Program-made: the position numbers and the translations under genes
In this document: one piece after another, positions 1,339 through 17,100 of the stretch
How the letters are laid out: every line of letters starts with the position of its first letter
Numbering within the stretch: position 1 is the stretch's first letter
Assembly: GCA_038736825.1 (NCBI GenBank)
Contig: JAVYME010000024.1
Coordinates: 1 to 17,100 of the forward strand
DNA: 17,100 nucleotides
Source: Candidatus Iainarchaeum sp.
Lineage (GTDB): Archaea > Iainarchaeota > Iainarchaeia > Iainarchaeales > DTGL01
Direction: 5' to 3'
The notes under the pieces: model-generated
Database searches by the model: none
What the model was told of the DNA's origin: nothing
Seen by the model: the letters and a program-made list of their open reading frames with translations, nothing else

Positions 1339-3101
1339 TGTTTCGCCTCCTTCTTTTTAGCGGAAGCCTCTTTTTTTCGGAGAGCTTCAAATTCTGCCTG
1401 GATTTGCTTCATCAGAGAAGCGATTTCTGTTTTGAATTTTTCGTTTTCAACAAATTTTAGCCTTGAAATCCTGTAAACTGATTCAAGATTGCTTATTTCT
1501 TCAGCGTCAGGGAATTCCAGTGACATTGCCTGTTCCCTGAAGAAAAGTATTGCGGAAATGATTCCAAGCTGTTTTTCGAGCGGGCAAAAAGTGTCAATTT
1601 CATGGTAAGCGTTTTGCTGCAAAAAGTCTTCTCTTACCATTCGCGCTATTTCAAGCGTCAAGCGCTCTTTTTGCGGCAAAGCATCAGGGCCGATTATTTG
1701 CACTATTTCAAGCAATTCTGCTTCTTTTTGCAATAATTCCATTGTGGTTTTTCTCGCTTTAGACCATTCCCTTGAAATGTTTTTGTCAGCCCATTTTCCT
1801 GTTTCTTCAGTGTAAAGCGAGTAAGAGGAAAGCCAGTTTATGGAGGGAAAATGCCTTCTTTCGCTTAAAGAGGCATCCAAAGCCCAAAAGACTTTGGTGA
1901 TGCGCAAAGTGTTTTGTGTCACTGGCTCTGAAAAGTCGCCGCCTGGAGGTGAAACCGCGCCGATTGCGCTTACAGAGCCAATTGTTTCATTCAAGGTTTT
2001 CACTCGCCCGGCTCTTTCATAGAATTCCGCAATTCTAGTGCCAAGGTATGCTGGATATCCTTCTTCGCCCGGCATTTCCTCCAAGCGAGATGAAACCTCT
2101 CTCAAGGCTTCAGCCCACCTTGAAGTGGAGTCAGCCATTAATGCGACATTGAATCCTTGATCGCGATAGTATTCTGCAATCGTGATGCCAGTGTAAACCG
2201 ATGCTTCCCTTGCAGCCACTGGCATGTTGGAAGTGTTTGCAATCAAAACGGTTCTTTTCATTAAAGGCTTGCCTGTTTTTGGATCCAAGAGTTTTGGAAA
2301 TTCTGTGAGCACGTCAGTCATTTCATTGCCTCTTTCACCGCAACCAACGTAAACAATTATGTCAGCATCAGCCCATTTTGCAAGGGCTTGCTGGAGGACA
2401 GTTTTGCCTGAACCAAACGGGCCTGGAATGCTTGCAGTGCCGCCTTTTGGCACTGGAAACAAAAAGTCTATTGTTCTCTGTCCTGTGACAAGCAGTTCAG
2501 AGGGTGAGAGTTTTTCAAGGTAGGGTCTTTGTTTTTTCACCGGCCATTCCTGCATGAGCTGGATTTTTTTTCCATTGATTTCGCAGATTGTTTCTTCAAC
2601 CGTGAAATCGCCTTCTTTTAAGCCTGAAATTTTTCCATGTATTGCGGGTGGCACTAGAATGTGGTGTAATATTGTTTCGGTTTCCCTTACAATGCCGATT
2701 TCTTGTCCGCCTTTCACTGTTTCCCCGTTTTTTGCTGTGGGCTTGAAGTGCCATTTCTTTTTTCTGTCCAGGGCTGGCGCTGAAACCCCTCTTGCAATAA
2801 AGTCTCCGCTTTGCTGTTTTATTATTTCAAGCGGTCTTTGAATGCCGTCATAAATGCTTCCAAGCAATCCGGGTCCCAGTTCAAGGCTTAAGGGGCTGCC
2901 GGTGAGTTCAACTGGTTCGCCTGGTTTTATGCCACTGGTTTCCTCGTAAACTTGAATGGTTGCCTTGTCTTTTTCCAAGCGAATTATTTCTCCAACCAGT
3001 TTTTCGTTTCCAATCCTTGCAACTTCGTTTATTTTGGCTCCCTGCAGGTTTTTTGCCTCTATTACTGGGCCTGAAATTTTGGTAATTATTGGTTTTTCCA
3101 T
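1335..3101 (-). CDS. atpA: A1AO ATP synthase catalytic subunit A
   Basis: 588-aa ORF with Walker [10 protein letters not shown]. Other typical stretches are [43 protein letters not shown] and [27 protein letters not shown] lies upstream of the ATG. It sits between atpF and atpB. Confidence 0.97.
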
Positions 3102-3115
3102 TGTTTTTTTCCTCC

Positions 3116-3454
3116 TCAGCTTGAACCTGAAGCTTTTTTTGTTATGTGTTCGGTTATTCCAATGCTTTTTTTTCCGGTTTTGTCCGGAATTTCTATTATT
3201 ATGGGGTTTTTGTTTGCTTCAATGAATAAAAAAATTTCTTTTTTTATTGGTGAACAGGAATTGTCAATTATGAGGATGCCTGTGCTTGGATCGGCTGTAA
3301 GGGTTTCAAACTGTCTTAATAGGGCTTGAGGGTTTTCCTCTGCAACAATTGTTTTTTTTATTCCGGCTAGCTTGAAGCCGGTAACCGTGTTTTTGCTGCC
3401 TAAAACTGTGATTTGCAGTTGTTGTCCTTCTTTTTTTTGCATTGAATCGCTCAT
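3116..3454 (-). CDS. atpF: A1AO ATP synthase subunit F
   Basis: 112-aa ORF in the canonical position between C and A. The pattern [19 protein letters not shown]...GILIID...IIEIP fits the small alpha/beta F subunit. Its start is 3 nt after the atpC stop. Confidence 0.85.
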
Positions 3455-3457
3455 TTT

Positions 3458-4603
3458 TCACACCGCTATTGCGATTTCCATTATTTGTTCTTTTGGCAGT
3501 CCAAGCCTTATGCCATTCAATATTGTTTTCAGGTTTAATATTTCTCTTTCTTTGAGGGCTAAATAGCAGGCAATCGGGGTTAAGCCAAAGGGCTGCCTTA
3601 AAGAGTAGGCATTGATTTCTTGAGCCCAAAATTCGTCCAATGCTTTTTCTGCTTGAAAGAGCGAGCCTTTCTCCAATTCTTTTGCTTTTTCTGAAAGTAT
3701 TGCGTGATAGGGAGTGCCTTCAAGCGCGCTTATTGCACTGTTGATGTCAACTGCTTCTGCAAGCGCTTCTGTTTTTTTTTCTTGAATGAAATAACCGTTT
3801 TTGAACAAAAGGGTTTTTGTTTTTTCAGTGCCAAGCTTGTCTTTGATGCAGCGCAAGACTATTTTTATTTTCAGTATGTCTGCTTGCATTCCATAAATTT
3901 TTCCCAGGTATTGCGAGTCCTGCATTATTCCAGCGTTTCTGGCGGTTTCATCTATTTTTGCTTTTCTTAAAATGCTTTCAAGCAAGTGCTTGTCCAAGGC
4001 TTGCTGTATTTCCCTTGGAGTCGGGTTTTGTGGCAATGATTCCACTGCTTCGCGATAGCTTGTGGCTTTCAGCAATTCAATGATTTCCTGCATGGAATTG
4101 GCTTCACTGAGTTTTTGCAAAAAGGCTTCAGAGAGAGGGCCTGGATAGAACTCTTGGATTGTTTGCTCTGTTTCTTTTGCGGCAATTATTGCTTTAATGT
4201 TTTCAACGTCGTATTTGGCGCTGACAATTTTGAAGAACTGGGTTGCTTTTCTCGGGCACATTCCAATTATTGCTTTGTAGTCGTGGGCTAAACTCAAGGC
4301 AAGCGATTTTTCTATTTCTTCAATTCCTGTTTTTCCTGCAATGAAGGTTTCATAGCCTGTGCCTTCAAAAGAGCCTATTACGTCCCTTAAATCCATTGAT
4401 TCCACTAGTTCCCTTATTTTTTCGCGTCCAAGCATTTTGCCTTTCATTACCCTTACTCTAGAGGAAGGGTAAGAGTATTGGGCTATTGGCATTGCCTTTA
4501 TTATTAAAAACATTAAGGCGAAACCGCCAGCAAGTATTGCTGCAAGCAAAATGCTGTCAACCAGCAATCCAATGCCGAAAAGCCCGGTTGCCATTTCATT
4601 CAC
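3458..4603 (-). CDS. atpC: A1AO ATP synthase subunit C (eukaryotic d-like) with an unusual hydrophobic N-terminal extension
   Basis: 381-aa ORF between atpE and atpF. The conserved subunit-C start YSYPSSRVRVMKGKML appears only at about residue 43. The start codon is ambiguous. One option is GTG at 4603, an 8-nt overlap with atpE. The other is ATG at 4594, 1 nt after the atpE stop with GGTGA upstream. An internal ATG at 4492 would give a canonical-length protein. Confidence 0.85.
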   Translation of the reverse strand: MNEMATGLFGIGLLVDSILLAAILAGGFALMFLIIKAMPIAQYSYPSSRVRVMKGKMLGREKIRELVESMDLRDVIGSFEGTGYETFIAGKTGIEEIEKSLALSLAHDYKAIIGMCPRKATQFFKIVSAKYDVENIKAIIAAKETEQTIQEFYPGPLSEAFLQKLSEANSMQEIIELLKATSYREAVESLPQNPTPREIQQALDKHLLESILRKAKIDETARNAGIMQDSQYLGKIYGMQADILKIKIVLRCIKDKLGTEKTKTLLFKNGYFIQEKKTEALAEAVDINSAISALEGTPYHAILSEKAKELEKGSLFQAEKALDEFWAQEINAYSLRQPFGLTPIACYLALKEREILNLKTILNGIRLGLPKEQIMEIAIAV

Positions 4604-5159
4604 CGATTTCCTTCAACAATTCTTTTTTCAGTTCTTGTTTTTTTTCTTCAAGCAATGCTGCAAAAGTGCAGTCAATTTTTATGCTTTCGTCAGCGCTTTT
4701 GATTATTGCGCCTGGGCTCATGTTTTTCACTGTTTCAATTTTTGCGCTTTTATTGTTTTTTTGCAAGAGTTTTGCGTCCTCTGGTGAAACTTGAATTGTG
4801 ATTGTTCCTGCTGGCATTTCTTTTATGGCCTCTGTCACCATTGAATTGAATTTTTTTGCAAAGTTTTTTTGTTTTCTCAGCAATTGAAGGGTTTTGGATG
4901 CATTGCTTATTATTTCTTCCAGTTTTTTGTCCAAAAGCAGTGCGATTTCTTTTTGGGCGTTTAGGTTTGCTCGCGCAATTTCTCTTTTTTTTGCGGTTTC
5001 TGCTTCGCTTTTGGCTTTTTCTCTTGCCATTGCAATGATTTCTTGCGCTTTTGCTTGTGCTTGGGATTTAATGCGCGCTGTTTCCCTTTCGCATTCGGTT
5101 TCTATGGCTTTCGCTCTCTTTTGCGCATCGCTTTTTATTTTTTCCATTATTCCTTGCAT
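4596..5159 (-). CDS. atpE: A1AO ATP synthase subunit E (peripheral stalk)
   Basis: 187-aa ORF. The N-terminal half is a charged coiled coil (KSDAQKRAKAIETECERETARIKSQAQAKAQEI...) followed by a globular C-terminus. It occupies the canonical position between K and C. Confidence 0.85.
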   Translation of the reverse strand: MQGIMEKIKSDAQKRAKAIETECERETARIKSQAQAKAQEIIAMAREKAKSEAETAKKREIARANLNAQKEIALLLDKKLEEIISNASKTLQLLRKQKNFAKKFNSMVTEAIKEMPAGTITIQVSPEDAKLLQKNNKSAKIETVKNMSPGAIIKSADESIKIDCTFAALLEEKKQELKKELLKEIGE

Positions 5160-5189
5160 TTTTTTGCCTTTTGTTTTTTTTTCTGGGTT

Positions 5190-5447
5190 TTAAAGGAATC
5201 CAGCGCCGGCTGCAACCACAAAGATTATCAGGATTGCAATCACAAGCCCGTATATTGCTTGGGTTTCAGGTATTGCGGTTAATACGAGCATTTTGCCAAA
5301 ACTGTAGTCTTTTTCTGCAACCCCTCCTGCTGCGGCTGCTGCTGCAATTCCTTGGCCTAAGCCTGAACCTGCTGCAGCTATTCCCACTGCAAGCCCTGCG
5401 CCTATCATCATTAAGCCCAAGGCGTTCATTGAAACTGGGTCAACCAT
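5190..5447 (-). CDS. atpK: A1AO ATP synthase proteolipid (c/K) subunit, single two-helix hairpin
   Basis: 85 aa with two hydrophobic helices rich in Gly and Ala (GAGLAVGIAAAGSGLGQGIAAAAAAGG). The ion-binding carboxylate lies in LTAIPETQAIYGLV. GGAGGTG is 8 nt upstream. There is an 8-nt overlap (ATGGTTGA) with the atpI stop. Confidence 0.9.
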   Translation of the reverse strand: MVDPVSMNALGLMMIGAGLAVGIAAAGSGLGQGIAAAAAAGGVAEKDYSFGKMLVLTAIPETQAIYGLVIAILIIFVVAAGAGFL

Positions 5448-7416
5448 TTTTTTGCACCTCCGTTTTTTTGGTTATTTTTCTTGGCACATGGAATGGCTTG
5501 AATTCTTTTCCATTGCCTGCGTAAAAGAATGAAAAGAATTCCACGAAATGCAGTCTTAAAGGGTGAATGAAAGAGCTTAAAATGTTGAAAACCAGGTTTG
5601 CTGTGTGCCCGAAAACCATTATTATTGCCCATAAAGCAAATCCAATGTATGGTATGTCAAAGAAAAGCTTGGCAATTATGTTGATGGACATTGCAACTGC
5701 AAAGGTTGCAAGGCTTAAAACCATTAGCCTTAAATAGGATAAAGTGTTGCCCATAAAACCGGTTATTTTCATTAACCCCAAGGGTCCGCCTGATAATAGC
5801 ATTAGGGCGAGCGAGGCAAGCAAGAGGCATAATCCTGCAAGGATTGCAATTTCTTGTCCTGGAAGGATTGTTCCAATTGCGTACAAGGCAATTCCGCCTT
5901 CAAGCAACAAGTAAACCATTTTGTCTTCAAGTGCTGCCTTGTAGTTTTTTTTCCTGAGTTCTTCTTTGAAGCCCAAAACTATTGCAAGGGTTAAGTGAAG
6001 CAATCCAACCAAAATCATTGCTCCAATGAAGAGCAATGCAATGCTTTGCCCTTCAAGGGTTTTGCCGAATGGATCCAGTAAAGCTATTTTTTTCATGCTT
6101 TCGCCGCCTAAATCGCCAAAAAAGCCGCCGAAAACCCAGCCGAAAAAGATTGTGGCAATTGAGCCGTGAACCAAAATGCTTGAAAGCTGTTTCCAGGAAT
6201 CGCTTTTTTTTCCAAGAAAGTGTTTTAAGAAAAGCGATATTGCAAGCAACACAAAACCGTAACCAATGTCAGAGAACGCTATTCCAAAAAAAACAGGATA
6301 GAGTATGGCAATAAAGAAGGTGGGGTCAATGGAGCCATATTCTGGCAATCCATACATTTTCACCAAAAACTCGTAGTTTTTAAAATAGCCCTTGTTTTCC
6401 AGCATTACTGGGGCTTCCTCTTCCTTGAATTGCATTTCTTCAATGTAATGCCTGCCTTTAGTGTTTTTTTCAATTTTTTCCCTGAACCTGTTTTCCAGTT
6501 TTTCTGGAACAAATGCTTCAAAGAAAACTGTTTTTTGAGTGCGAGCGAACATTTGAAAGGCTTTGCCCTTGGATTTCTCTATTTCAAGCAATTCTTGCAA
6601 GACTGAAACCCTTCCAGCGTGCTTTTTTTCCAGTTGTCGGCATTCCAAAACAATTGCCTTTTTTTCCTCTTCCAGCTGGCGCAATTCCTTTTCAGCCTTT
6701 CGTATAAGGTTTGCTGGCTTGCCAGAGCGCTCTGGCACTATCAGCCTGTCAAAGCCGATTTTTTTAAGGCTTTGCATTATGCTTTCTTGCGCTTCTGTTT
6801 CCACAGAGAACAAGACTGTTTTTTCTCCAACGCTTTCAGTTATCTTCAAAAGGGATGCTTGTTTTTGTTTTTTGAAGAAAGCCAGCAATTCGTCCTCAAA
6901 CTCTGGCGGGATTTTTCCAACAACAACCGAAATGCTTTTGTATCCTGCAAGGAGGTCCAATTCAATGCCGAGTTCTTGAATGCTTTCAAGTATTAGTTTT
7001 TCCTTTTGAATTGCTATGGAGCGCTCTTCTGCTTTTTTCAGTCTTGAATCCAGGGCTTCAATTTTGCTTGCAAGCCCGCCAAGGAATTCGTCAGCGCTTT
7101 TCTTGAACGAATTGAAGTCAGCGGGAGCTTTTTCCTTTAAAGGCTCTCTTGTTGAAAGGAATTCTTTTATTTTTTCTTTCAAGGATTGCGGTTCAGAGTG
7201 CGCTTTAAAAAAACCTAAAATCCTTTTCGCGCGCGTTAACTGGAATGAGGCAAAGCGCTCCCTTTCATTAAAATCAAAAGCGTTGAGGTTTTTTCCTTCA
7301 ATGTCAACGCGCTTGAATTCAACCAGTTCTTCTTCGTGAAAGTCATCCAGCACTTTTTGAGTGTCCTCTTCAAGCAATATTACTGAAAACTTTTTCATTT
7401 TAGCCGGCTTAAGCAT
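5440..7416 (-). CDS. atpI: A1AO ATP synthase subunit I (stator a-subunit)
   Basis: The N-terminal half is soluble and coiled-coil rich. The C-terminal half has multiple transmembrane helices and ends ...HPLRLHFVEFFSFFY. I chose the ATG at 7416 (MLKPAKMKKFSV..., the usual M-L/F-K/R-P-x-K/R-M start). It has GGAGG 8 nt upstream and overlaps the atpH stop by 8 nt. The ORF-track start at 7479 would add 21 atypical residues. Confidence 0.9.
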   Translation of the reverse strand: MLKPAKMKKFSVILLEEDTQKVLDDFHEEELVEFKRVDIEGKNLNAFDFNERERFASFQLTRAKRILGFFKAHSEPQSLKEKIKEFLSTREPLKEKAPADFNSFKKSADEFLGGLASKIEALDSRLKKAEERSIAIQKEKLILESIQELGIELDLLAGYKSISVVVGKIPPEFEDELLAFFKKQKQASLLKITESVGEKTVLFSVETEAQESIMQSLKKIGFDRLIVPERSGKPANLIRKAEKELRQLEEEKKAIVLECRQLEKKHAGRVSVLQELLEIEKSKGKAFQMFARTQKTVFFEAFVPEKLENRFREKIEKNTKGRHYIEEMQFKEEEAPVMLENKGYFKNYEFLVKMYGLPEYGSIDPTFFIAILYPVFFGIAFSDIGYGFVLLAISLFLKHFLGKKSDSWKQLSSILVHGSIATIFFGWVFGGFFGDLGGESMKKIALLDPFGKTLEGQSIALLFIGAMILVGLLHLTLAIVLGFKEELRKKNYKAALEDKMVYLLLEGGIALYAIGTILPGQEIAILAGLCLLLASLALMLLSGGPLGLMKITGFMGNTLSYLRLMVLSLATFAVAMSINIIAKLFFDIPYIGFALWAIIMVFGHTANLVFNILSSFIHPLRLHFVEFFSFFYAGNGKEFKPFHVPRKITKKTEVQKNG

Positions 7417-7717
7417 CCAAAAGCCTCCGCAAAACAATTGCTTGCAGTTCACTGCTTTTTTCTGAAATTTTTCTTTCAAGCGCTTCCATTTTTTTGCGTG
7501 AAACCCTTTCTATTTCTTTTGCCTTTTCCTGTCCTTCAAGCCGGCCTTTTTCAATTATTTCGTTTCTTTCCTTTTCAGCTTGCAATAAAGCGTTTTTTAT
7601 GGTTTCTTGGGCTTCAAGCTCTGCCTTTCTGGTTAAATCCTCTTTTCGTTTTTCGGCTTTTTCAATCAAAGCATTGCTTTCCTGCTCCAATTGCCTTATT
7701 TCCTTTAAAACCTGCAT
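7409..7717 (-). CDS. atpH: A1AO ATP synthase subunit H (peripheral stalk coiled-coil protein)
   Basis: First gene of the operon. It encodes a 102-aa, entirely charged helical protein (MQVLKEIRQLEQESNALIEKAEKRKEDLTRKAELEAQ...). I chose the ATG at 7717 rather than the ORF-track start at 7798, which adds an F/K-rich read-through of the promoter region. The call rests on position, size and composition. Confidence 0.7.
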   Translation of the reverse strand: MQVLKEIRQLEQESNALIEKAEKRKEDLTRKAELEAQETIKNALLQAEKERNEIIEKGRLEGQEKAKEIERVSRKKMEALERKISEKSSELQAIVLRRLLDA

Positions 7718-7824
7718 TTTTTTCCCTTTTTTTGTTTTTACTGAAAAAAAAAACTTGAAGGCGAATATATTTCCTTTCCACCAAACCTTTAAAAGCATTT
7801 TTTAAAGGATTTGTGGATTAAAGA
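7718..7824. promoter_or_regulatory. Divergent intergenic promoter region between the atp operon and argS
   Basis: 107 bp, very AT-rich. On the minus strand, TATA-like AAATATAT (complement of about 7764-7771) follows purine-rich GGAAAGG and lies about 50 nt upstream of the atpH ATG. On the plus strand, TTTTTTAAAGG (7798-7808) lies about 20-25 nt upstream of the argS ATG. No experimental support. Confidence 0.35.
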
Positions 7825-9540
7825 ATGCTTATGGAGTTAAGGAAAGGCATAGCTGGGGCTTTTTCTGTTGCAGCAAGCGTGCCCTTGGAAAAGGCTTTGG
7901 CTTTGATTGAACGCCCTCCAGACAAAAAATTCGGAGATTTTTCCATTCCAGTGTTTTCTTTGTGCTCTAAAAGCGAAAACCCAGCAAAAAAAGCACTGGA
8001 AATAAGGCAAAAAATGAAAACCCCGGAAGGAATTTCAAAAATAGAAGTTGTTGGACCTTACATTAATTTTTTCCTGGATGAATCAGTATTTTTTGCTTCA
8101 GTAATGGAGTCAATTCTTTTATTGCAAGAGAATTTCGGGAAAAGCGATAAAGGCAAGGGCAAAAATGTCATGGTGGAATATTCTGCACCCAACACCAACA
8201 AGCCATTGCATATAGGGCATTTGAGGAACGACTGCATTGGCATGAGCGTTAGCGCTTTGTTTGAGGCAGCTGGGTGGAGGGTAATTAGGGCAAACCTTGT
8301 GAATGACCGCGGAATCCACATTTGCCAGGCAATGGTTGCCTACCAAAAATTCGGTGAAGGCAAAACCCCGCAATCCGCGAAAACCAAGGGCGACAAGTTT
8401 GTGGGCGATTTTTATGTGCAATTCAATCAAAAAGCAAAGGAAAACCCTGAATTGCAAGAGGAAGCCAGGGTTTTGCTTCAAAAATGGGAGTCTGGAGACA
8501 AACAAACAAGGGCTTTATGGAAAAAAATGCGCGAATGGGTGCTTTCAGGATTCAATGCAACCTATAAAAAGTTCGGTTCAACCTTTGAAGAAACCTTTTT
8601 TGAATCCGATTTTTACGACAAAGCAAAACCATTAATAGAATTGGGCTTGAAAAAAGGGGTTTTTGAAAAAACACCAGAGGGAGCCATAATTGCCAGGCTG
8701 GAAAAACACGGCTTGCCTGACAAAACCGTTCTCAGGGCTGACGGAACAAGCATTTACATTTCAAACGATTTGGCTTTGACAAAATTCAAGCAAGAAAAAT
8801 TCAATTTGCACAAAAACATTTTTTGCGTTGCAAGCGAGCAAGACCTTTATTTCAGGCAATTGTTCAAAATACTGGAATTGCTTGGGTTTGCTTGGGCTAA
8901 AAACTGCGAGCACTTGAGTTATGGCTTGGTGTTTTTGCCGGAAGGCAAAATGAAAAGCCGTGAAGGAAAAGTGATAGATGCAGACGACCTAATAGCAAAA
9001 ATTGAAGGCATTGCATTAAAAGAAGTTGAAAAAAGGTATCCCAAACTAAAGGAAAAGGAAAAGAAAAAAAGGGCTGAAACCATAGCCCTGGCGGCAATAA
9101 AGTTTGCAATGCTCAAAATAGACCACAAAAAAGATTTCACTTTTTTGCCAGAACAATCCTTGAGCTTTGAAGGCGAATCAGGGCCATACCTGTTATACTC
9201 TTATGCAAGGGCTAAAAGCGTTTTAAGAAAGGCTGAATGGAAAGGCACTGGCAAAACAAAAACAGATTTTTCCAAGCTTTCAAGCGAAAAAGAAAAAGCA
9301 ATTTTGAAAACCCTTGCGGTTTTCCCAGAAACAATTGAAAAAGCCTTGAATGAAAGAAACCCGAGCCTTTTATGCCATTTCCTTTTATCACTGGCAGAAC
9401 AATTCAATGCCTATTACCATGAAACAAAAATAATAGGTTCAACAGAGGAAAAGGAACGGCTTGCGCTCACAAAAGCAGTTTCCATTGTCTTAAAATCAGG
9501 CCTTTCGCTTTTAAACATTTCTGTTTTGGAGGAAATGTGA
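7825..9540 (+). CDS. argS: Arginyl-tRNA synthetase
   Basis: 571-aa ORF with the class I HIGH motif (EYSAPNTNKPLHIGHLRN). It also has the ArgRS-type second signature region GKMKSREGKVI and a C-terminal anticodon-binding style helical domain (GPYLLYSYARAKSVLRKA). Confidence 0.95.
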   Translation: MLMELRKGIAGAFSVAASVPLEKALALIERPPDKKFGDFSIPVFSLCSKSENPAKKALEIRQKMKTPEGISKIEVVGPYINFFLDESVFFASVMESILLLQENFGKSDKGKGKNVMVEYSAPNTNKPLHIGHLRNDCIGMSVSALFEAAGWRVIRANLVNDRGIHICQAMVAYQKFGEGKTPQSAKTKGDKFVGDFYVQFNQKAKENPELQEEARVLLQKWESGDKQTRALWKKMREWVLSGFNATYKKFGSTFEETFFESDFYDKAKPLIELGLKKGVFEKTPEGAIIARLEKHGLPDKTVLRADGTSIYISNDLALTKFKQEKFNLHKNIFCVASEQDLYFRQLFKILELLGFAWAKNCEHLSYGLVFLPEGKMKSREGKVIDADDLIAKIEGIALKEVEKRYPKLKEKEKKKRAETIALAAIKFAMLKIDHKKDFTFLPEQSLSFEGESGPYLLYSYARAKSVLRKAEWKGTGKTKTDFSKLSSEKEKAILKTLAVFPETIEKALNERNPSLLCHFLLSLAEQFNAYYHETKIIGSTEEKERLALTKAVSIVLKSGLSLLNISVLEEM

Positions 9541-11405
9541 TGAAAATCAAAATTGCAAAGCCAAGCATTAAACTGCCGCCCTTGCGGTTTCCAGTGCCAG
9601 CGCCAAAGCAGAAAACCCAAAAACCAAAAAAGAAAAAAAACGATTCCGAGTTCTCCAAAGAAAAAAAAGAATTGCTGGAAAGCATGAAGCGAAGCTCTGG
9701 CAGGGCTGACACAAAACTTGTGGGAAAAGCCCTTTCCTTTATTGCAAGCCTTCCACGCATTCCACGAGAAAGAGGGGAACGAATTTTGGTTGAAAAGGCC
9801 TTTTTGTTCTCAGAGCAAAAGCATGGAATGCAGAAAAGGCTTTCAGGCGACCCATATTTTTCGCACTCCTTTCAAACAGCACTAATTCTTTCAGAATACG
9901 GTTTGGACAGCAACACCATAGCGGCAGCCCTATTGCACGATGTTTTAGAGGACACAGAGGCAAGCGATGAAGAAATAGGAAATGCCTTTGGCGGAGAAGT
10001 CCTCAAACTAGTGAAAGGCGTAACCAAACTAAAACAAAAAGAAAAAGCAAAAGGGGAAAGCGAGCAAGAGGAAAAAGCCTATTTGAAAAGCGTTCTGGCA
10101 GCCTCTGCAGAAGACCCAAGGGTTTTACTGATAAAGCTTGCTGACAAAATCCACAACCTGCGCACCATAGAATTCATGCCTGAAAAACGAAAAAAAGAAA
10201 TCTGCGAAACCGCACTGGAAGTCTATGCTCCGCTCGCTGAAAGGTTTGGCTTGAACAAAATGAAGGAAGAAATCCAAGACAGATGCCTTGCAGTTTTGCA
10301 CCCCCAAGAATTTGAATCGCTTTCAGCTGAAATAAGCAAGCGCCGCAACATAAAAGAAGAAGAAATCAATGAAGCAATCAAAGTGCTTTCCGGAATGCAA
10401 GTGCAAGGCAGGAAAAAATTTTTCCAAAAATACTCTTGGCGGAAAATGAGCAAAAACGTTTACTATTACTATGAAAAAACCACTAAAAACAAAAAAAGCC
10501 TGGACGAATTATACGATTTTGTCTCCCTGGTTGTTTTATGCAACACCATAGGAGAATGCTATGAAGCCCTCAAAACAATCCACACAGCCTTTTACCCGAT
10601 TCCAGGAAAACTAAAAGACTTGATTGCAACACCACACTACATGACATACCAGTCAATTTGCACTTCAGTGATTGGACCGAAAGGCTTTCCAGTGAAAATC
10701 TTCATTAGAACCAAAGAAATGGACGAACTTGCAGAAAAAGGAATCGCTGTCTGGCTAAAAGAAAAATTCAAGCCAAAAGATGAAGAAAAAGAACTCGAAT
10801 CACTGGCAGAAATGGCAAAAAAACCCTGCGAACCAAAAGAATTCTTTTCAACCCTAAAAACAGACTTTTTAGGGGAACAAATAAGCGTTTTCAGTGAAAA
10901 CGGTTCCAAATACAGCATTCCAAAAGGCTCAACAGCCCTCGATTTTGCCTTCAAACAAAACCCTGGAAAAGCCCTTTACGCTTTAAGCGCAGAAATAAAT
11001 GGAAAACAAAGACCATTATGGCATGAATTAAAAAGCGGGGACAGAGTGGTTTTCTCTTTTTCGCAAGCAAAAACTGTTTCAAGGGACTGGGCTGGTTTTG
11101 CAAAAACCTTTGGAGCAAGAGAATGCATTTTAAAAGAACTCAACCTTTACTCAAACAACACCCTATCAGGAAAAACCCCTTTGGCTGGCTATTCGTTTTC
11201 AGCAAAGCCAAGAAAAGGCTTATTGAAAGAAATCTTTTTGGTTTTAGGAGAAAACGCTTCAGTTTCAAGTTTTACCGTTAAAAAGGTTGCACCGCACAGG
11301 GTTGAAGGCTCGCTTTTCCTTGAACTCAAAAAAAACACTTCAATTGAAAAAATTGAAAAAAAGCTTGGCAAAATCAAGGGTTTAAGCGAAATAAACAGGA
11401 TTTAA
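9540..11405 (+). CDS. Long RelA/SpoT homologue (RSH): HD hydrolase domain, degenerate synthetase-like domain, TGS domain and ACT-like C-terminus
   Basis: HD motifs: HGMQKRLSGDPYFSHS, AALLHDVLEDT, LLIKLADKIHNLRT and EVYAPLAERFGL. Synthetase-like region: GRKKFFQKYSWRKM...DLIATPHYMTYQSICTSVIGPKGFPVKIFIRTKEMDELAEKGIA. TGS-like region: ISVFSENGSKYSIPKGSTALDFAF...INGKQRPLWHELKSGDRVVF. GGAGG lies 7 nt before the ATG at 9540, which overlaps the argS stop (TGATG). GTG at 9537 and ATG at 9684 are alternative starts. Confidence 0.85.
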   Translation: MKIKIAKPSIKLPPLRFPVPAPKQKTQKPKKKKNDSEFSKEKKELLESMKRSSGRADTKLVGKALSFIASLPRIPRERGERILVEKAFLFSEQKHGMQKRLSGDPYFSHSFQTALILSEYGLDSNTIAAALLHDVLEDTEASDEEIGNAFGGEVLKLVKGVTKLKQKEKAKGESEQEEKAYLKSVLAASAEDPRVLLIKLADKIHNLRTIEFMPEKRKKEICETALEVYAPLAERFGLNKMKEEIQDRCLAVLHPQEFESLSAEISKRRNIKEEEINEAIKVLSGMQVQGRKKFFQKYSWRKMSKNVYYYYEKTTKNKKSLDELYDFVSLVVLCNTIGECYEALKTIHTAFYPIPGKLKDLIATPHYMTYQSICTSVIGPKGFPVKIFIRTKEMDELAEKGIAVWLKEKFKPKDEEKELESLAEMAKKPCEPKEFFSTLKTDFLGEQISVFSENGSKYSIPKGSTALDFAFKQNPGKALYALSAEINGKQRPLWHELKSGDRVVFSFSQAKTVSRDWAGFAKTFGARECILKELNLYSNNTLSGKTPLAGYSFSAKPRKGLLKEIFLVLGENASVSSFTVKKVAPHRVEGSLFLELKKNTSIEKIEKKLGKIKGLSEINRI

Positions 11406-11430: not shown

Positions 11431-14304
11431 TTATTCCAAGAAAATGGCTGGTTTCAAGGGAAGCGCTGAAGAGGCTTTCTGCTTGAAATCATTCCCTGCC
11501 TTTTCCTCTTCAAGGATTTCAATTTTACACTCAAGCGCTCTTTCCATGAAATCCTTTCCTCCTTCCAGAACCTCCAGTTCGCAAATTTTTTGCACTTCCT
11601 TTAACTCCATTGCCTTTCCAGCAAGCCTTTTAATGACGGTTTCAGCCTCTTTTCCCTTGGATTTCACTTCAGGGCACTTCATTGCCTCTTTCATTGCAAG
11701 CCCGAAATCAGGCCTGTCAATTTTTTTCACTGCTTCAAGGGCAATCCATTTCCATGGGGCTGCCGTGAAAAAAATTGCCTTTTTTATCCTGGTTTTGCCT
11801 GTTATTTTCATGATGTTTTTTGCGTCTTCAATGCAAGTGGAAAGCAAGGTTTCGCTTAAGTCAACTATTTGGCTTGTTTGCATTTTTTCCGGGAGTTTTG
11901 ATTTAAAGATTGATTCCTTGTGTTTTAGCGAGTTTCTCCAGATTTCTTCGGCGATGTGGGGCATGAAGGGGGCTATGCATTTCAGCCAAACCTCTGTTAT
12001 GTATAAGTTAAGGCTTTTGTTTTCTTTTTGTTTTCTTGTTTCAAACCAGAGCAAGTCTTTTGCGAACTTGAAAGTGATTTCCTGCACTGCAGAGCGCAGC
12101 ATGGCGCTTTCCATTGCTTCAAGGAAGGCATTCACCCTTTTCCTGAAAGCATTCAAAAACCATTTTTCCGCTTGGTCTAAAACAGCTTCATCTAGTTCGC
12201 CGCTTTCAGCGGACTCCAAAGCGCTCTCTTGCACCCATTCAACCAAATCATTCAGTTTTTCAACCCCCTTGTCTATTTCCCTTTGCTTCCAATCCATTTC
12301 CTCCCAAGGCTCAACAGAATTCATTAAAAACAAGCGCACATAATCAGTGCCAATTTTTTCACACATATCGTTTATCAAAATTACATTGCCCTTCGAGGAA
12401 GACATTTTTTTGCCCTCCAATACAAGCATTCCAAGATTAAGAGTGCCCTTTTGCCTTTTGTCAGGCGGAAAGATTGCAGTGTGCTGGAATATGGAAAAAG
12501 ACATGTGGTTTGGAATGAGCTCTGTAGCGCTAACATTGAACGCCAAGGGATACCAGTAATCAAACTCTTTCCCCATTTCCTCCAAGTCTTTTCTGTCCAA
12601 ACCACTTTCCCTTGCAATTTCCTCCACTTTGCCTTTTCCAAGGAACACAAAGTCAAAAACCTGCTCGGAAAGCCTTTCAGGCGGCAATTTTTTTATAATG
12701 TGTGAAATCGTAAAATACGCCATGTAAATAGTTGAATCAGCCAATGGCTCCAATATCTTGTCCTGCTGCCAGGGAAACCTTGTCCCCAAGCCCTTTGAGC
12801 GAGTGCAAGGCTTGTCATCAAGCCAACTGAAAACATTATCGTATTGAGTGCGAAAAACCTCTGGCACAATCTTCATTTTTTCAAGCGTTTTCCTGCTCTC
12901 CTCCTTCCATTCAGGATCAGAATATGTAACAAACCACTGGTCCTCCAAAACACGCACAACACATTCAGCTCCGCACCTGCAAACCACTCTGCCCTCCAAT
13001 TCATAAAATTTTTCAGCCTGCCCTTTTTCAATCAATTCCTTTTTCACCAACTCTTTTGCCTTGCTCACCGGCATTCCAGCATACTTTCCACAGTTTTGAT
13101 TCATTTCACCCTTGTGGAACCCTATCCTGTAAACAATTTTTTTCGCTTCCTCCAGTTTTGCCTCATCCTTTTGGCTTTGAATTCCCAAGTCTTTAACGAT
13201 TTTTGCCGCAGACTCCTCGCCAAACTCAGCGGTTTTAATTATGGGAATGGTTTTCAAGGCAAGCACTTCGCTTTCATTCAAGCCATACCTTTCAATCATT
13301 GCAGCATCCTTTTGCAAATCCAGTAAAGCCACCAAATCAATTGGAGCATCGCTTGGCACAGAAGTGACAATCCCAGTGCCAGTTTTCGGATCACAAAAAG
13401 AGCAAGGCAAAACAAGCACTTTCCTTTCAATGCCTGGCGCCAAAGCCTTCTTTCCAACCAAAACAGCACCACTTATTTTGCCCTTCTCGATTACCCCGCT
13501 CTTTTGCTCTTTCAGTTTTTCAACAAACTCCTTGCTGCCAATCCATTCCTCCCCATCAACTCCAGCAATAAAATATTCAATTTCAGGGTTAACCCACAAA
13601 TTGGTTTGCCCGAAAACAGTTTCAGGCCTCAAGGTTGCAGCAACAATAAATCTGCCATCATCCATTTTAAACTTTAAAATCGTGAACTCCTGTATGCCCA
13701 AGCCCTCGCCTTCAGCCAAATCATGGTCTCCAACAGGATTATTGTCTTTCGGGCAATACCTTACAGGATATTTTCCCTTCTTGATATAGCCTTTATTGTA
13801 AAGCTTTTTGTACTGCCATTCAATGAACTTCTTATAAGTTGGATCAATGGTTTTTAGCTCCCTTCTCCAGTCAATTCCCAATCCAAGCTTTTTAAAACCA
13901 GCCTTATAACCATATTTTGCCTTGTTCACCATGTAATCCACAAAACTCTCAGGGCTTTCTGTAAGATATTTCAAGTCTTCTTTTGGAATCCTAGAGCTTT
14001 CAGTGAAAACTTTCAACACTTTTTCATTGCCTTTCTGCAACGCCTCAACAGCAGCAATAACCGGAGTTCCAGAAACATGCCAGCCCATTGGCATCAAAAC
14101 ATTATAACCTTTGAGCATGTGATATTTTGCCATTATATCCGTGACAGTGTAAGTGCGCGCATGCCCGATATGCATTGCCCCGCTCGGATAAGGATAAGCA
14201 ACTTGAATATAAAAAGAGGGCTTTTTTGAATCCACTTTCGGCTCAAAAAGGCCTTCCTTTGCCCAGGCATCCTGCCATTTTTTCTCAATTTGTGCAAAAT
14301 CCAT
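11431..14304 (-). CDS. leuS: Leucyl-tRNA synthetase (archaeal/eukaryotic type)
   Basis: 957-aa ORF with HIGH (AYPYPSGAMHIGHARTY) and KMSKS (GKKMSSSKGN) motifs. The CP1 editing-domain signature TLRPETVFGQTNLWVNP is present. Length and C-terminal extension fit the archaeal form. Confidence 0.97.
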   Translation of the reverse strand: MDFAQIEKKWQDAWAKEGLFEPKVDSKKPSFYIQVAYPYPSGAMHIGHARTYTVTDIMAKYHMLKGYNVLMPMGWHVSGTPVIAAVEALQKGNEKVLKVFTESSRIPKEDLKYLTESPESFVDYMVNKAKYGYKAGFKKLGLGIDWRRELKTIDPTYKKFIEWQYKKLYNKGYIKKGKYPVRYCPKDNNPVGDHDLAEGEGLGIQEFTILKFKMDDGRFIVAATLRPETVFGQTNLWVNPEIEYFIAGVDGEEWIGSKEFVEKLKEQKSGVIEKGKISGAVLVGKKALAPGIERKVLVLPCSFCDPKTGTGIVTSVPSDAPIDLVALLDLQKDAAMIERYGLNESEVLALKTIPIIKTAEFGEESAAKIVKDLGIQSQKDEAKLEEAKKIVYRIGFHKGEMNQNCGKYAGMPVSKAKELVKKELIEKGQAEKFYELEGRVVCRCGAECVVRVLEDQWFVTYSDPEWKEESRKTLEKMKIVPEVFRTQYDNVFSWLDDKPCTRSKGLGTRFPWQQDKILEPLADSTIYMAYFTISHIIKKLPPERLSEQVFDFVFLGKGKVEEIARESGLDRKDLEEMGKEFDYWYPLAFNVSATELIPNHMSFSIFQHTAIFPPDKRQKGTLNLGMLVLEGKKMSSSKGNVILINDMCEKIGTDYVRLFLMNSVEPWEEMDWKQREIDKGVEKLNDLVEWVQESALESAESGELDEAVLDQAEKWFLNAFRKRVNAFLEAMESAMLRSAVQEITFKFAKDLLWFETRKQKENKSLNLYITEVWLKCIAPFMPHIAEEIWRNSLKHKESIFKSKLPEKMQTSQIVDLSETLLSTCIEDAKNIMKITGKTRIKKAIFFTAAPWKWIALEAVKKIDRPDFGLAMKEAMKCPEVKSKGKEAETVIKRLAGKAMELKEVQKICELEVLEGGKDFMERALECKIEILEEEKAGNDFKQKASSALPLKPAIFLE

Positions 14305-14357: not shown

Positions 14358-14978
14358 TCAGCCAATCGCCCTCAAAATGAATTCCCTGTATGGAAGCGCT
14401 CCATAAACTATTTCCCTTCCAGCAAAGTGCGCTATCACCTGCTTTTTTGGAAAACCCATTTTCACTGCAAGCTTTGCACTCAAAACATCTGCAAGCAATT
14501 CCTCTGCCTGTTCGAGTGAAATGCGGTGTGCTAAAGCAAATTCCCTTAGTTTTGGTTTTGGAAAGTGCGCGTATTCATGGCATAAAGTGAGAATGCCGTC
14601 CAAAGACATTTTTTCTCCCTTGAATATGTGTTCAACTGGAAGGTTTATGTAACTCTTTCTTTCAATTCTGCGCATTCCGCCAATTTGGATTATCCTGTAA
14701 AAGGAAACGTTTTCGCCTTGAGTGACAAAAAAAGGGTTTGCACGCATTACTTTTCTAGGGTAAAAATATATTGGCGTGTTCGCCAAATTCAATTCCATTA
14801 ATTCAAACAATTCGCTTTCAATGCCGCTTTTCGCCTCTTTTTTCAATTCTTTCAAGGAATTCGCAGCATGCCTCATAAAGGCATCCAATGCCTTTTTTCT
14901 GGCTCCACTCAACACAGGGCTTTCAGGGAATTGCATGAAAAAAAGAACAACCGAAATCCTTATTAAGCGGGATTTCAT
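14358..14978 (-). CDS. Hypothetical protein with a single HExxH motif (possible zinc metallopeptidase-like fold)
   Basis: The ORF-track frame 14358..15116 actually starts on TTG and overlaps the divergent gene. The first plausible ATGs are at 14978 (MKSRLIRISVVLFF...) and 14936 (MQFPESP...). The only recognisable motif is LTLCHEYAHFPKP. I recognise no family. The start is uncertain. Confidence 0.55.
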   Translation of the reverse strand: MKSRLIRISVVLFFMQFPESPVLSGARKKALDAFMRHAANSLKELKKEAKSGIESELFELMELNLANTPIYFYPRKVMRANPFFVTQGENVSFYRIIQIGGMRRIERKSYINLPVEHIFKGEKMSLDGILTLCHEYAHFPKPKLREFALAHRISLEQAEELLADVLSAKLAVKMGFPKKQVIAHFAGREIVYGALPYREFILRAIG

Positions 14979-15003
14979 AATATTATCGGCTTTGGTGGAT
15001 TGA

Positions 15004-15399
15004 ATGGAAATGCCGATTTGGGCGATAATAACGCTTTTCTTGGCAATTAGTGTTGCATCTCTCATATTGCTTTTTGGGACTGACATGCTTGCCAGTGCAA
15101 GGAATGCCTTGAACAACTGGTTTCCCCAAGAAAGTCCTCAAATTATAAGGCAACCCTCGATTTCAGACACCCAAGTGGCTGAACTCATAGAACAATGCTA
15201 TAAGAACAGTTATGGCAAGGCATTAAAGCAGGAAGTCTGCTTTTCCATCACTTTGGACAATGCAGTAAACCTGAAATCAGCTTCAATTTCTCCGCTTGTC
15301 AAAATAGACCAAAACCATTTCAAAATAAATGATGGCAACACAAGGTCTTTTTCAATTGTATGGGATTTTGCGAATTCAAAGGTTGAGGTGATACCATGA
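15004..15399 (+). CDS. Small membrane-anchored or secreted protein 1 of the tandem cluster (N-terminal hydrophobic helix, 2 Cys)
   Basis: 131 aa. The N-terminus MEMPIWAIITLFLAISVASLILLFG is hydrophobic. GGTGGA lies 4 nt upstream of the ATG and a stop codon immediately precedes the ATG. Its stop overlaps the next start (ATGA). Confidence 0.65.
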   Translation: MEMPIWAIITLFLAISVASLILLFGTDMLASARNALNNWFPQESPQIIRQPSISDTQVAELIEQCYKNSYGKALKQEVCFSITLDNAVNLKSASISPLVKIDQNHFKINDGNTRSFSIVWDFANSKVEVIP

Positions 15400-16007
15400 A
15401 ATCTAAAGGAATGGAAATGCCAATACAAATCTTCATAATACTGTTCGTGCTACTTGCAGTGGCAATGCTGGTACTGCAAATGGTGTCGCAACAGTTTGCT
15501 GAACGGCAAAAAAAATTAAAGGAAGAGGAAATGAAGCGGGCGTACAATGAAAAATTGGCTTCAATGAATGAGACTTGCAGCAATTTGTGCGCGCAAGCCA
15601 ATTCTGATGGAAGTCTTTCCTCAAAGGTTGCTTTTTGCGCTAAAAAGTTTGAGGATGGTTTGGACATTACAAAGAACTCTATGACTGGAGATTATACTGA
15701 AGAGTTTTCCAATATTTTTGGCGTGGGCATATGTGAAGACATGATTTATTGCCCGCACACGCATAGCTGCAAGATTGGCGGTGGCACTGCTTTGACAATG
15801 GACACTTGCAAGACAATAATGTGCCAATATTTTGCCAACCAAGGCTTTACCCAGGATGAGCGCACTGAAAAACTCAGACAATTCATACGCCCCGGAAACT
15901 GTTATTTTGAGAAAGCCAGCAATGTTCCAAACCACTGGTACACTCGCTTGTTTGACAAAGACGGCAGCAAGACAGTTGACTTGAACTCCGAAGTTGTTTG
16001 CCCTTAA
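15396..16007 (+). CDS. Small cysteine-rich protein 2 with a class III (prepilin-like) signal peptide candidate
   Basis: 203 aa. GAGGTG lies 5 nt upstream. The N-terminus is MKSKG|MEMPIQIFIILFVLLAVAMLVLQMV, followed by a charged helix (AERQKKLKEEEMKRAYNEKL) and a domain with 10 Cys. Confidence 0.7.
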   Translation: MKSKGMEMPIQIFIILFVLLAVAMLVLQMVSQQFAERQKKLKEEEMKRAYNEKLASMNETCSNLCAQANSDGSLSSKVAFCAKKFEDGLDITKNSMTGDYTEEFSNIFGVGICEDMIYCPHTHSCKIGGGTALTMDTCKTIMCQYFANQGFTQDERTEKLRQFIRPGNCYFEKASNVPNHWYTRLFDKDGSKTVDLNSEVVCP

Positions 16008-16024
16008 GTGAACGGAGTGTTTTC

Positions 16025-16432
16025 ATGGAAAACATTGTCTGGGCGATTTTTGGAGTTATGGCTTTCCTTTTAGCAATAGGCATACTGGTAAACTTGGTGG
16101 TAAGCGGTGTTGACGACCGCAAGCTTGCAGTGAGCAGGAATGCTGTGAGCGAGCTCGGGCAATGGTGTCGAACGGTTTGCGGTTCGGACATTGAAAGCAG
16201 GCTTTCAAAGGAAATCACAATGGCTTCCGGTTCAGAAGTCAAAGCAGAAAAATCCGGAGTTTGCATGTCTTTTGGTTCTTGGAGGGAATGCAGTGATTGC
16301 ATCTGTGATTTGAACACGTTCTATCTCAATCTCAACAAGCCGGAAATACTGCAAATGTATGAAAGCCACAAATTTGCCTGCACTTTTGAAAGACAAGGCG
16401 GGGGCGTGGTGGCAATTGACTGCAAGGGCTGA
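16025..16432 (+). CDS. Small cysteine-rich protein 3 (N-terminal helix paralogous to protein 1, 8 Cys)
   Basis: I chose the ATG at 16025 (MENIVWAIFGVMAFLLAIGILVNLVV) because GGAG lies 7 nt upstream and the N-terminus then matches protein 1. The ORF-track start at 15998 would overlap gene 2. 135 aa. Confidence 0.65.
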   Translation: MENIVWAIFGVMAFLLAIGILVNLVVSGVDDRKLAVSRNAVSELGQWCRTVCGSDIESRLSKEITMASGSEVKAEKSGVCMSFGSWRECSDCICDLNTFYLNLNKPEILQMYESHKFACTFERQGGGVVAIDCKG

Positions 16433-16469
16433 AGGCGTTTCCAAGCCTTTGCGCTCGGAGCCCCCTTTT

Positions 16470-16853
16470 TTGGGTTTGAAGGGAAGCACTTCAACCCAGA
16501 TAATTTTATGGGTTGGTGTCATAATCATTGCTGGAATAGGGCTTTACTGGTTTTTAAGCCATTTTTATAATGCTCAATATCTTTTCGAGCTAATAGACAA
16601 TGAAGTGCTTTTTTTTTCTGGGAAAATAAACCAGAACTGTGATGCCAACTATCATTATTTCAGCCGCAATCCGATAATAGAGGATGGCAACATTTTTTTT
16701 TCAAAGAATGAGGTTTGCATTAGATCAAAATCAATTGAAAAGTGCGCTTTGCTTTCCTGTGGACCGGACAAGAACGTTTCAATAGATTTGGCGCAAATAG
16801 TTTACATTGAGGGAATCAGGTACGGCGAACTCAGAATCAGGGGCGTTAAGTGA
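16470..16853 (+). CDS. Small protein 4 (hydrophobic helix after a K-G motif, 4 Cys), start codon uncertain
   Basis: The frame is open from the ATG at 16359, but that start overlaps gene 3 by 74 nt and has no SD. TTG at 16470 has GGAG 9 nt upstream and gives (M)GLKG|STSTQIILWVGVIIIAGIGLYWFL. There is no in-frame ATG between 16359 and the helix. Confidence 0.5.
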   Translation: MGLKGSTSTQIILWVGVIIIAGIGLYWFLSHFYNAQYLFELIDNEVLFFSGKINQNCDANYHYFSRNPIIEDGNIFFSKNEVCIRSKSIEKCALLSCGPDKNVSIDLAQIVYIEGIRYGELRIRGVK

Positions 16854-16884
16854 TGGAATCGCTTGCTTTAAGGTGGAATGCGGA

Positions 16885-17100
16885 ATGAGGTTTTTTTCAG
16901 GGCAAAAGGGCGTGCAAAGCGTTATCACTGCCTTTTTTTTAGTGGTGGTTTTTGTCACGGTATTGCTTTTGCTAATATACTTCAATTACGAGGGTGTTGC
17001 AAAAAAACAGGCTTTATCGCAATCCTATCATTTTTTCCAGCAAAACGCTTTCTATAAAGACCAAATAGAGAATTGCTTGAAAATGCCAGAAAAGCAGGAC
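16885..17100 (+). CDS. Small protein 5, class III (prepilin-like) signal peptide candidate, 3' end beyond the window
   Basis: Absent from the ORF track because it runs off the right edge. AGGTGGA lies 7 nt upstream of the ATG at 16885. The translation is MRFFSGQKG|VQSVITAFFLVVVFVTVLLLLIYFNYEGVAKKQ..., open for 72 codons to position 17100. Confidence 0.55.
   Translation, partial: MRFFSGQKGVQSVITAFFLVVVFVTVLLLLIYFNYEGVAKKQALSQSYHFFQQNAFYKDQIENCLKMPEKQD

Follow-up and report, generated by a model that had tools for sequence, protein, structure and literature searches.

The far end of a contig from a Candidatus Diapherotrites (Iainarchaeia) metagenome-assembled genome (MAG; GCA_038736825.1, contig JAVYME010000024.1) carries five open reading frames (ORFs), here called O1 to O5, which raise the question of what kind of structure their products form. 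The window that we analysed is the whole 17,100-bp contig. An earlier note, made from the DNA letters, had proposed that the five ORFs encode small proteins with pilin-like leaders and form an undescribed archaeal surface or pilus-like module. Our results make it quite probable that O1–O5 provide a type IV filament (TFF) machine specific to DPANN archaea with its set of pilin-like subunits, which is probably minor-pilin or tip-like. What we observed, and what carries this reading, is the conservation of the genes, their linkage, translated K-G leaders and a helix-plus-head architecture. For comparison with relatives, the DNA around O2 homologues was retrieved and all ORFs in it were compared by BLAST; the loci are numbered from L001, with L002 and L012 being duplicates of L001 and L003.

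Five conserved genes with N-terminal hydrophobic helices

All five genes lie on the forward strand. O1 (15004..15399) starts at ATG and encodes a leaderless pilin-like protein of 131 aa that begins MEMPIW and has a small alpha/beta head with two invariant cysteines. O2 (15396..16007; ATG, 203 aa) opens with the leader MKSKG (15396-15410), which is followed by MEMPIQIF, a helix of 65 residues and a head with ten cysteines. O3 (16025..16432; ATG, 135 aa) is again leaderless and pilin-like, beginning MENIVW, and contains eight cysteines. O4 (16470..16853; 127 aa) starts at TTG with the leader (M)GLKG (16470-16484), continues STSTQIILW and has four cysteines. O5 (16885..17100) begins at ATG with the leader MRFFSGQKG (16885-16911) followed by VQSVITAFF, and is represented by its first 72 codons, open at the end.

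The distances between consecutive genes are -4, 17, 37 and 31 nt, the 4-nt overlap of O1 and O2 being ATGA, which agrees with the co-directional packing that had been claimed (a 4-nt overlap or gaps of 37 nt or less). The claim that each start is preceded by a Shine-Dalgarno (SD)-like motif was confirmed by the coordinates: GGTGGA at 14994-14999 for O1, GAGGTGA at 15385-15391 for O2, GGAG at 16014-16017 for O3, GGAG at 16457-16460 for O4 and AGGTGGA at 16871-16877 for O5, all 4-9 nt 5' of their start codons. Each protein has a single strong hydrophobic segment, which is N-terminal as the note had it (best Kyte-Doolittle 19-mer 2.5-3.3), and none elsewhere. Longer frames for O3 (from TTG 15998) and O4 (from ATG 16359) were rejected; both overlap the preceding gene, and orthologues set the O3 start at MEN and the O4 start at the TTG five codons before the helix. 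In the window (15380-15399) and in orthologues, the codons GTN-GAG-GTG specify the conserved VEV at the C-terminus of O1 and at the same time supply the SD motif (GAGGTGA) of O2, so the stretch is constrained both as protein and for translation.

According to the note, the array ran off the window. O5 is indeed truncated, but it is cut at 17100 because the contig itself ends there, and the assembly holds no sequence beyond that position. Exact-sequence look-ups of O1 and O2, aimed at extending the contig, returned no record. The O5 fragment is 56% identical to the N-terminus of a 596-aa protein that comes after O4 in the syntenic relative L005; O5 orthologues elsewhere have 138-246 aa. The label 'small proteins' fits O1–O4 (127-203 aa), whereas O5, to judge by its counterpart in L005, is probably not a small protein.

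Other MAGs contain orthologues of all five genes arranged in this order, with E-values of 1e-10 to 1e-80, identities of 25-57% across many MAGs and invariant cysteine patterns. The order O1-O2-O3-O4 is kept in ~16 independent MAG loci, and O5 comes next in 10 of them, so that the lack of conservation which the note had named as a sign of spurious ORFs is not seen. We found 17 orthologues of O1 in the loci and 21 database relatives. Close homologues of O2 number 17 in MAGs of Diapherotrites and Micrarchaeota, and a profile search of 1.84 billion cluster representatives returned 320 at E ≤ 1e-3, 200 at 1e-10 and 40 at 1e-30. The O2 family spans at least four DPANN phyla, with named examples in Diapherotrites, Woesearchaeota and Aenigmarchaeota. 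Nine of the ten O2 cysteines are invariant and the tenth (C202) is kept in at least 90% of sequences, and the helix core LFVLLAVAMLVLQ is almost invariant among homologues.

Two members of the O2 family (P0046, 437 aa, and P0053, 472 aa) have C-terminal fusions to domains annotated by their sources as a dockerin type I repeat (Diapherotrites) and a cohesin domain (Woesearchaeota). The existence of these fusions points to an extracellular location of the family. They also hint at cellulosome-like plug-in heads on a pilin scaffold.

Searches of Pfam and NCBIfam with O1–O5 at E ≤ 10 gave sub-threshold matches only (ComGE, SieB, TrbK and others), and matches of the ComGE/SieB/TrbK type were rejected as compositional because all were driven by the transmembrane (TM) helix. 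The statement that the proteins belong to no known family therefore stands, with no Pfam or NCBIfam match for O1–O5 and no PDB fold match for O1 and O2. A literature search found general classifications of archaeal TFFs and no description of the O1–O5 protein families. Hence the word 'undescribed' is right for the protein families and wrong for their general kind, as type IV filament loci in DPANN archaea are already known in outline.

In the AlphaFold2 (AF2) model of O2 (pLDDT 82.9), residues 7-71 form a helix that is followed by a compact head; in that of O1 (pLDDT 84.3), a helix at residues 5-39 is connected through a linker of low confidence to a small alpha/beta head. When the profiles were compared with hhalign, O1 and O2 had only their first 39 residues in common (97.6%, E = 4.8e-12), and the heads of O3 and O4 proved homologous (92%, E = 6.8e-7). 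By analogy, a shared helix in one pair and a shared head in another is the pattern seen among pilin paralogues.

K-G leaders and leaderless forms

The earlier note had read K-G leaders in three of the five proteins, and in a six-frame scan of the window for [KR][GA] followed by a hydrophobic stretch, O2, O4 and O5 were the sole real ORFs that fitted; the scan also caught two short antisense ORFs within known genes. The three leaders are conserved in orthologues. The [KR]G leader of O2 is present in 19 of 19 locus orthologues, whose N-termini follow the pattern M-x-x-[KR]-G-[MLV]-E-M-[AP]-I-Q; a twentieth sequence in this comparison was the leadered O1 of L022 and is not counted here. Orthologues of O4 have the TTG start in common and conform to M-N-A-[KRA]-[GA]↓S-x-x-x-[E/Q/D/N] (the arrow marks the predicted cut), with Glu at +5 in about half of them. 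The O5 motif [KR]G↓[VIN]-[YHQ]-S is kept in 10 orthologues, and p466, a protein encoded near the array in relatives, also has [KR]G directly before its helix (KG↓N).

Judged from the orthologous sequences, the K-G leader of O2 is translated. An SD of the GGAGGTGA type lies 4-6 nt ahead of the leader start codon in most loci, and the codons of the leader vary (AAA, AAG, AGA and CGT for K/R; GGA, GGC, GGG and GGT for G). In L006, translation of O2 cannot begin at +1 because the +1 codon is TTA. The idea that the K-G codons are instead the SD for a start at the next Met was rejected: AAR-GGN abuts the Met codon with zero spacing, the full GGAGGTGA stands before the leader start, R is once encoded by CGT, and one orthologue has TTA at +1.

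O1 and O3, whose lack of a leader the note had left implicit, are leaderless in almost all genomes. O1 of the window can have no leader because an in-frame TGA lies directly 5' of its ATG. All 18 orthologues of O3 begin ME/D-[NQ]-x-V-W, and a stop codon stands directly upstream in several. In the wider O1 family, about half of the members have M-x-N-x-K-G before the same Met (P0026-P0035, P0038 and the L022 protein), for example MxNxKG↓MELPI as against MEMPI. Since the leadered and leaderless O1 forms meet at the same Met, the processing site is placed at G↓M; and because the leadered kin have K-G before that Met, the leaderless forms start exactly at the predicted +1 residue. From their N-termini, then, O1 and O3 appear to begin at the Met that follows K-G in leadered relatives. 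An acidic residue occupies +2 or +5 of the predicted mature end. The neighbouring protein p145 is likewise leaderless and has Glu at position 5 (MQAIE), and an O2 homologue from Aenigmarchaeota (L024) reads MGKKG↓LNALE, a canonical KG↓L...E(+5) pilin N-terminus.

Filament-type genes beside the array in relatives

Wherever the flanking sequence is long enough, the array stands next to a conserved group of genes. Two coiled-coil proteins of ~230 and 195 aa, taken as cytoplasmic, come ahead of a secretion ATPase of ~555 aa, which is always followed by a polytopic membrane protein of ~630 aa. The other members of the set are p145, a Cys-rich protein of 140 aa that begins MQAIE; a PKD-domain protein of 560-900 aa with an N-terminal hydrophobic helix and, in some relatives, an HExGH motif; p254, which is Sec-type secreted and has a C-terminal anchor; and p466 (400-860 aa). 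L013, L017 and L022 have all thirteen genes together in a single co-directional operon, and the ATPase block is divergent from the array in L001, L003, L011, L015 and L016. Despite these rearrangements, linkage to the ATPase and platform genes is kept across Iainarchaeia, Micrarchaeota and Aenigmarchaeota. Each locus encodes eight or more pilin-like proteins.

The closest view of what the contig end cuts off comes from L005 (GCA_026396995.1). Its upstream part is syntenic with the window, with genes for arginyl-tRNA synthetase (ArgRS), a RelA/SpoT-like protein, leucyl-tRNA synthetase (LeuRS), a small HExxH protein and O1–O4, and it continues with the 596-aa O5, p466, the PKD protein, p145 and the platform protein up to the end of its contig. 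Because of this synteny, we infer that the missing part of the window's genome is alike.

The ~555-aa ATPase adjoins the array in 8-9 distinct loci (L001, L003, L011, L013, L015, L016, L017 and L022). It matches Pfam T2SSE with E = 1.3e-16 and has the Walker A motif GPRGSGKT, and its best PDB matches are FlaI (1.9e-21), AfGspE of A. fulgidus (3.6e-21) and CpaF (5e-15). Its match to the NCBIfam FlaI model (7e-32) is far below the cutoff, as is its weak match to the BasE model (3.6e-23). Since the FlaI-model match falls below the cutoff, we regard the protein as a divergent archaeal secretion ATPase that is not orthologous to FlaI. An N-terminal tetracysteine motif, CxxC-x10-CxxC (DCxxCxG...), is present in seven of eight ATPase orthologues (L001 6537-8201, minus strand) and degenerate in that of L022. 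FlaI is not known to have such a motif, and the cysteines may form a zinc ribbon specific to this subsystem.

The ~630-aa protein has nine predicted TM segments and two soluble domains of ~140 aa each, and its halves are alike (hhalign E = 1.4e-4), which indicates an internal duplication. Its Pfam matches are all sub-threshold: Spore_III_AB (SpoIIIAB) in five of eight members, best 8e-5, and T2SSF in one of eight, at 0.03. SpoIIIAB has a GspF-like fold. Sequence and profile searches of the PDB with the ~630-aa protein gave no match. We read the ~630-aa protein as a putative, very divergent platform protein of the FlaJ/TadC type. The earlier suggestion of a pilus-like module with a divergent or new set of pilin-like proteins gains support from these neighbours in relatives, a FlaI/GspE-type ATPase and a platform-like protein with nine TM segments.

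In five relatives (L001, L003, L008, L011 and L015), small canonical [KR]A↓QxSLE pilins are encoded a few kb downstream of the array, and their presence shows that these relatives use class III signals. In L001, the one locus scanned for this, the headless ~60-aa pilin matches Pfam Class_IIIsignal with E = 5e-4, below its cutoff, and Flp1_like with 2e-3. It is possible that the small headless pilin is the major pilin of the same machine. In L001, these canonical pilin genes, a second group beside those of the array, lie at 16450-16936 (minus) and 15225-15578 (plus).

Several other loci show variants of this organisation. In Aenigmarchaeota (L024 1-20600, GCA_021157705.1), nearly all of ~20 co-directional genes encode a hydrophobic helix at the N-terminus, most of them with KG↓L leaders, and a 706-aa homologue of the platform protein (E = 2.9e-48) lies in their midst. 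No gene in L024 matches T2SSE, and the ATPase is either elsewhere or unrecognisable. L004 (10001-13647), from the same genome as L003, has a lone O2 paralogue (P0017, 40% identical) directly upstream of a 975-aa DUF87 ATPase of HerA/VirB4-like type, with no other genes of the system nearby. In L006, a second and different TFF cluster (1-8300, minus, and 8499-9524, plus) lies directly upstream of the O1–O5 array; it comprises a 738-aa T2SSE ATPase (29% identical), a T2SSF protein and eight small or medium genes, and a DDE transposase gene stands between the two clusters. A complete archaeal-type operon with a leadered O1 occurs in L022 (JAFCCG010000015.1), which is labelled 'Chloroflexi bacterium' and is probably a mis-binned DPANN contig.

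The PKD protein was located at 1103-3262 (minus) in L001, at 13005-13682 and 15091-16782 (minus) in L005 and at 11777-14281 in L017. Its N-terminal helix is pilin-like, HExGH is found in 5 of 11 orthologues, and one L005 fragment has a weak reprolysin-like Pfam match (E = 3.5e-3). The filament may carry this protein as a protease or an adhesin.

Outside the array, the window holds housekeeping genes, including A-type ATP synthase genes and those for ArgRS, the RelA/SpoT-like protein and LeuRS; Rfam and tRNA scans of the window were empty. Upstream of O1 and divergent from it lies the gene of a small zincin-like protein with the HExxH motif HEYAH (14358-15116, minus, probably 14358-14903). The longest ORF overlaps O1, and the orthologue suggests a start ~70 codons later. 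The protein is 66% identical to its L005 counterpart at the same place and absent from the other loci, and its Pfam match to MPTase-PolyVal is weak (E = 0.056). The 622-aa ORF at 9537-11405 (plus) contains the HD-domain motif LLHDVLEDT, and the syntenic gene in L005 has the Pfam domains HD_4, RelA_SpoT and ACT_4; to our knowledge, a (p)ppGpp synthetase/hydrolase homologue is unusual for a DPANN archaeon.

Alternative readings, known systems and a proposed mechanism

A number of results weigh against O1–O5 being filament subunits. The window itself contains no ATPase, platform or peptidase gene, and linkage to them is drawn from relatives and from the synteny with L005. No A24-like prepilin peptidase (multi-TM with GxGD) was found in any retrieved 20-kb locus; indirect support for such an enzyme comes from the canonical [KR]A↓QxSLE pilins of relatives and from a FlaK-like peptidase reported in the Micrarchaeote Mia14 (PMC5498576). 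The homology of the platform protein to T2SSF is weak. When the models of O1 and O2 were run against the PDB with Foldseek, no pilin came up and nothing scored E < 1; the best E-values were 2-4, which makes the models unusable for family assignment. In the O1 model, the TM helix is not packed on the sheet as in classic pilins but joined to the head via a low-confidence linker. The predicted mature ends MEMP, STST and VQSV differ from Q+1/S+3/E+5, although some O4 orthologues have S+1 and E+5. The residues after the putative cut (M-E, S-T, V-Q) do not satisfy the FlaFind rule, and Pfam Class_IIIsignal (PF04021) matches none of O1–O5 even at E ≤ 10, in line with the note's remark that QxSxE-like N-termini are poorly matched. 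Finally, O1, O3, p145 and the PKD protein are leaderless, and their helices could be mere membrane anchors.

In an alternative reading, O1–O5 would act in the same TFF machine as uncleaved bitopic membrane proteins, forming an extracellular alignment or stator part. Precedents are ArlF/ArlG (FlaF/FlaG) of the archaellum and PilN/PilO and GspL/GspM in bacteria. The absence of a leader from O1 and O3 in almost all genomes fits such a role, as does the O1 model with its TM helix, floppy linker and separate small alpha/beta domain. The sole pilus-related row in the Foldseek list of O1 is PilN (rank 14, E = 6, not significant), no pilin fold was found for O2, and the separate small canonical pilins of relatives could make the filament alone. 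However, O2, O4, O5 and p466 have a strictly conserved [KR]G immediately ahead of the helix, in a leader that is translated, leadered and leaderless forms of one family meet at one Met, and the acidic +2/+5 residue is accompanied in distant orthologues by a canonical KG↓LxxLE. Moreover, O1 and O2 share only the N-terminal helix, and the count of at least eight such proteins per locus is far above that of known alignment complexes. We consider it unlikely that O1–O5 are parts of this kind.

Two simpler explanations fare worse. O1–O5 might be ordinary Sec-inserted, signal-anchored Cys-rich surface proteins whose proximity to pilus genes in relatives is meaningless; the housekeeping neighbours in the window (LeuRS, ArgRS and the A-type ATPase genes) and the lack of family or fold matches to pilins are compatible with this, but the linkage to ATPase and platform maintained across three lineages, the single operon in three loci and the conserved K-G and Glu motifs make it very improbable. 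That some or all of the ORFs are spurious, as chance frames in decayed DNA or in AT-rich sequence between genes, has nothing to recommend it beyond the lack of annotation. It is already refuted by the orthologues in many MAGs with their invariant cysteines, and the SD motif before every ORF and the confident AF2 models of O1 and O2 (pLDDT 83-84) likewise leave it virtually no chance.

Taken as a filament subunit set, the array can be placed among known systems. Classifications of archaeal TFF loci exist (Makarova et al. 2016, PMC4858521; Sivabalasarma & Albers 2026, bioRxiv 10.64898/2026.04.22.720090), and some DPANN are reported in this literature to have System 1, 4A or Aap-like loci. The system resembles System 1/Clade 1, exemplified by the Epd pilus of Methanococcus maripaludis, in its large locus, which combines a single secretion ATPase with one or more platform or platform-like proteins, in its five or more minor pilin-like genes and in its large adhesin-like proteins with pilin-type N-termini. 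The small [KR]A↓QxSLE pilins of relatives, a few kb away, likewise recall the headless Epd major pilins of 60-70 aa, which are encoded apart. In contrast to System 1, which has two platform genes and EppA/EpdA in the locus, the 13-gene locus here has one internally duplicated platform-like gene of ~630 aa and no peptidase gene, so that neither of these two features of Epd-like systems is found. It also differs in the two coiled-coil proteins ahead of the ATPase, in the N-terminal CxxC...CxxC of the ATPase, in pilin-like families without a Pfam or NCBIfam match, in the cut context (KG↓ME as against QxSxE) and in having several leaderless members.

A conserved, co-transcribed block of four or five pilin-like genes is also typical of bacterial minor-pilin sets (FimU-PilVWX with PilY1; GspH-I-J-K; ComGD-G). 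As in these, the proteins have the N-terminal helix alone in common, a large adhesin-like gene comes next, and Glu +5 is present only in some members. Unlike them, the array shows no sequence or detectable fold similarity, is associated with archaeal FlaI-type components and has leaders of 5-9 residues ending in K-G, and we regard the resemblance as an analogy of gene organisation, not homology. The leaderless O1 and O3 resemble the archaellum stator proteins ArlF/ArlG in their apparently uncleaved N-terminal helix, extracellular domain and position beside FlaI/FlaJ-type genes; however, O1–O5 have no sequence match to them, the O1 family includes members with K-G leaders, and the loci lack archaellins and archaellum genes. 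With the Sulfolobus bindosome (Bas) and other functionalised TFFs, the system has in common pilin-like N-termini on diverse and sometimes large extracellular proteins (PKD, dockerin and cohesin fusions) and one ATPase/platform pair that serves all, but there are no linked substrate-binding proteins or ABC transporters, and the BasE-model match of the ATPase is weak.

If O1–O5 are filament subunits, the pre-proteins would insert N-in/C-out, and a peptidase of the PibD/FlaK/EppA type would cut after Gly (KG↓MEM, KG↓STST, KG↓VQS). O1 and O3, whose first residue is that same Met (ME...), would not have to be cut. The helices would then be drawn out of the membrane by the ATPase and platform protein and assembled as a helical core, with the disulfide-bonded heads on the outside of the cell. 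We favour O1, O3, O4 and O5 as a priming or tip complex, by analogy, because a block of four or five genes followed by large adhesin-like proteins mirrors the PilY1 and GspH-K sets. Among the five, O2 is the most plausible repeating subunit, given that its helix is the best conserved and that paralogues of it stand alone (P0017 in L004, for instance); alternatively, a small Flp/Epd-like pilin, which relatives encode at a separate site, could supply the bulk of the filament. The machine probably serves in attachment to surfaces or host cells. Attachment from cell to cell is our conjecture from DPANN biology and from the adhesive domains fused to family members.

A broader proposal, which we put forward tentatively and think somewhat less likely than its opposite, is that this is a DPANN-wide TFF machine with its own pilin families, in which some subunits (O1, O3 and p145) are naturally leaderless, their start codon coinciding with the mature +1 position, and so bypass prepilin peptidase, while orthologues or paralogues keep the five-residue M-x-x-K-G. 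The machine would form an attachment organelle or tip complex that binds partner cells, and the dockerin, cohesin and PKD versions, some of the latter with HExGH, would be exchangeable heads.

DPANN archaea are presumed to live attached to other cells through contact molecules that are largely unknown. The array offers a concrete and widely conserved contact candidate (~320 O2 clusters), whose genes are annotated as 'hypothetical' and are invisible to Pfam, NCBIfam and fold searches. A family that contains both leadered subunits and subunits starting at the predicted cut site would provide a test of pilin assembly without processing by prepilin peptidase. The motifs and gene order described here could become profiles that extend archaeal TFF classification tools to DPANN genomes.

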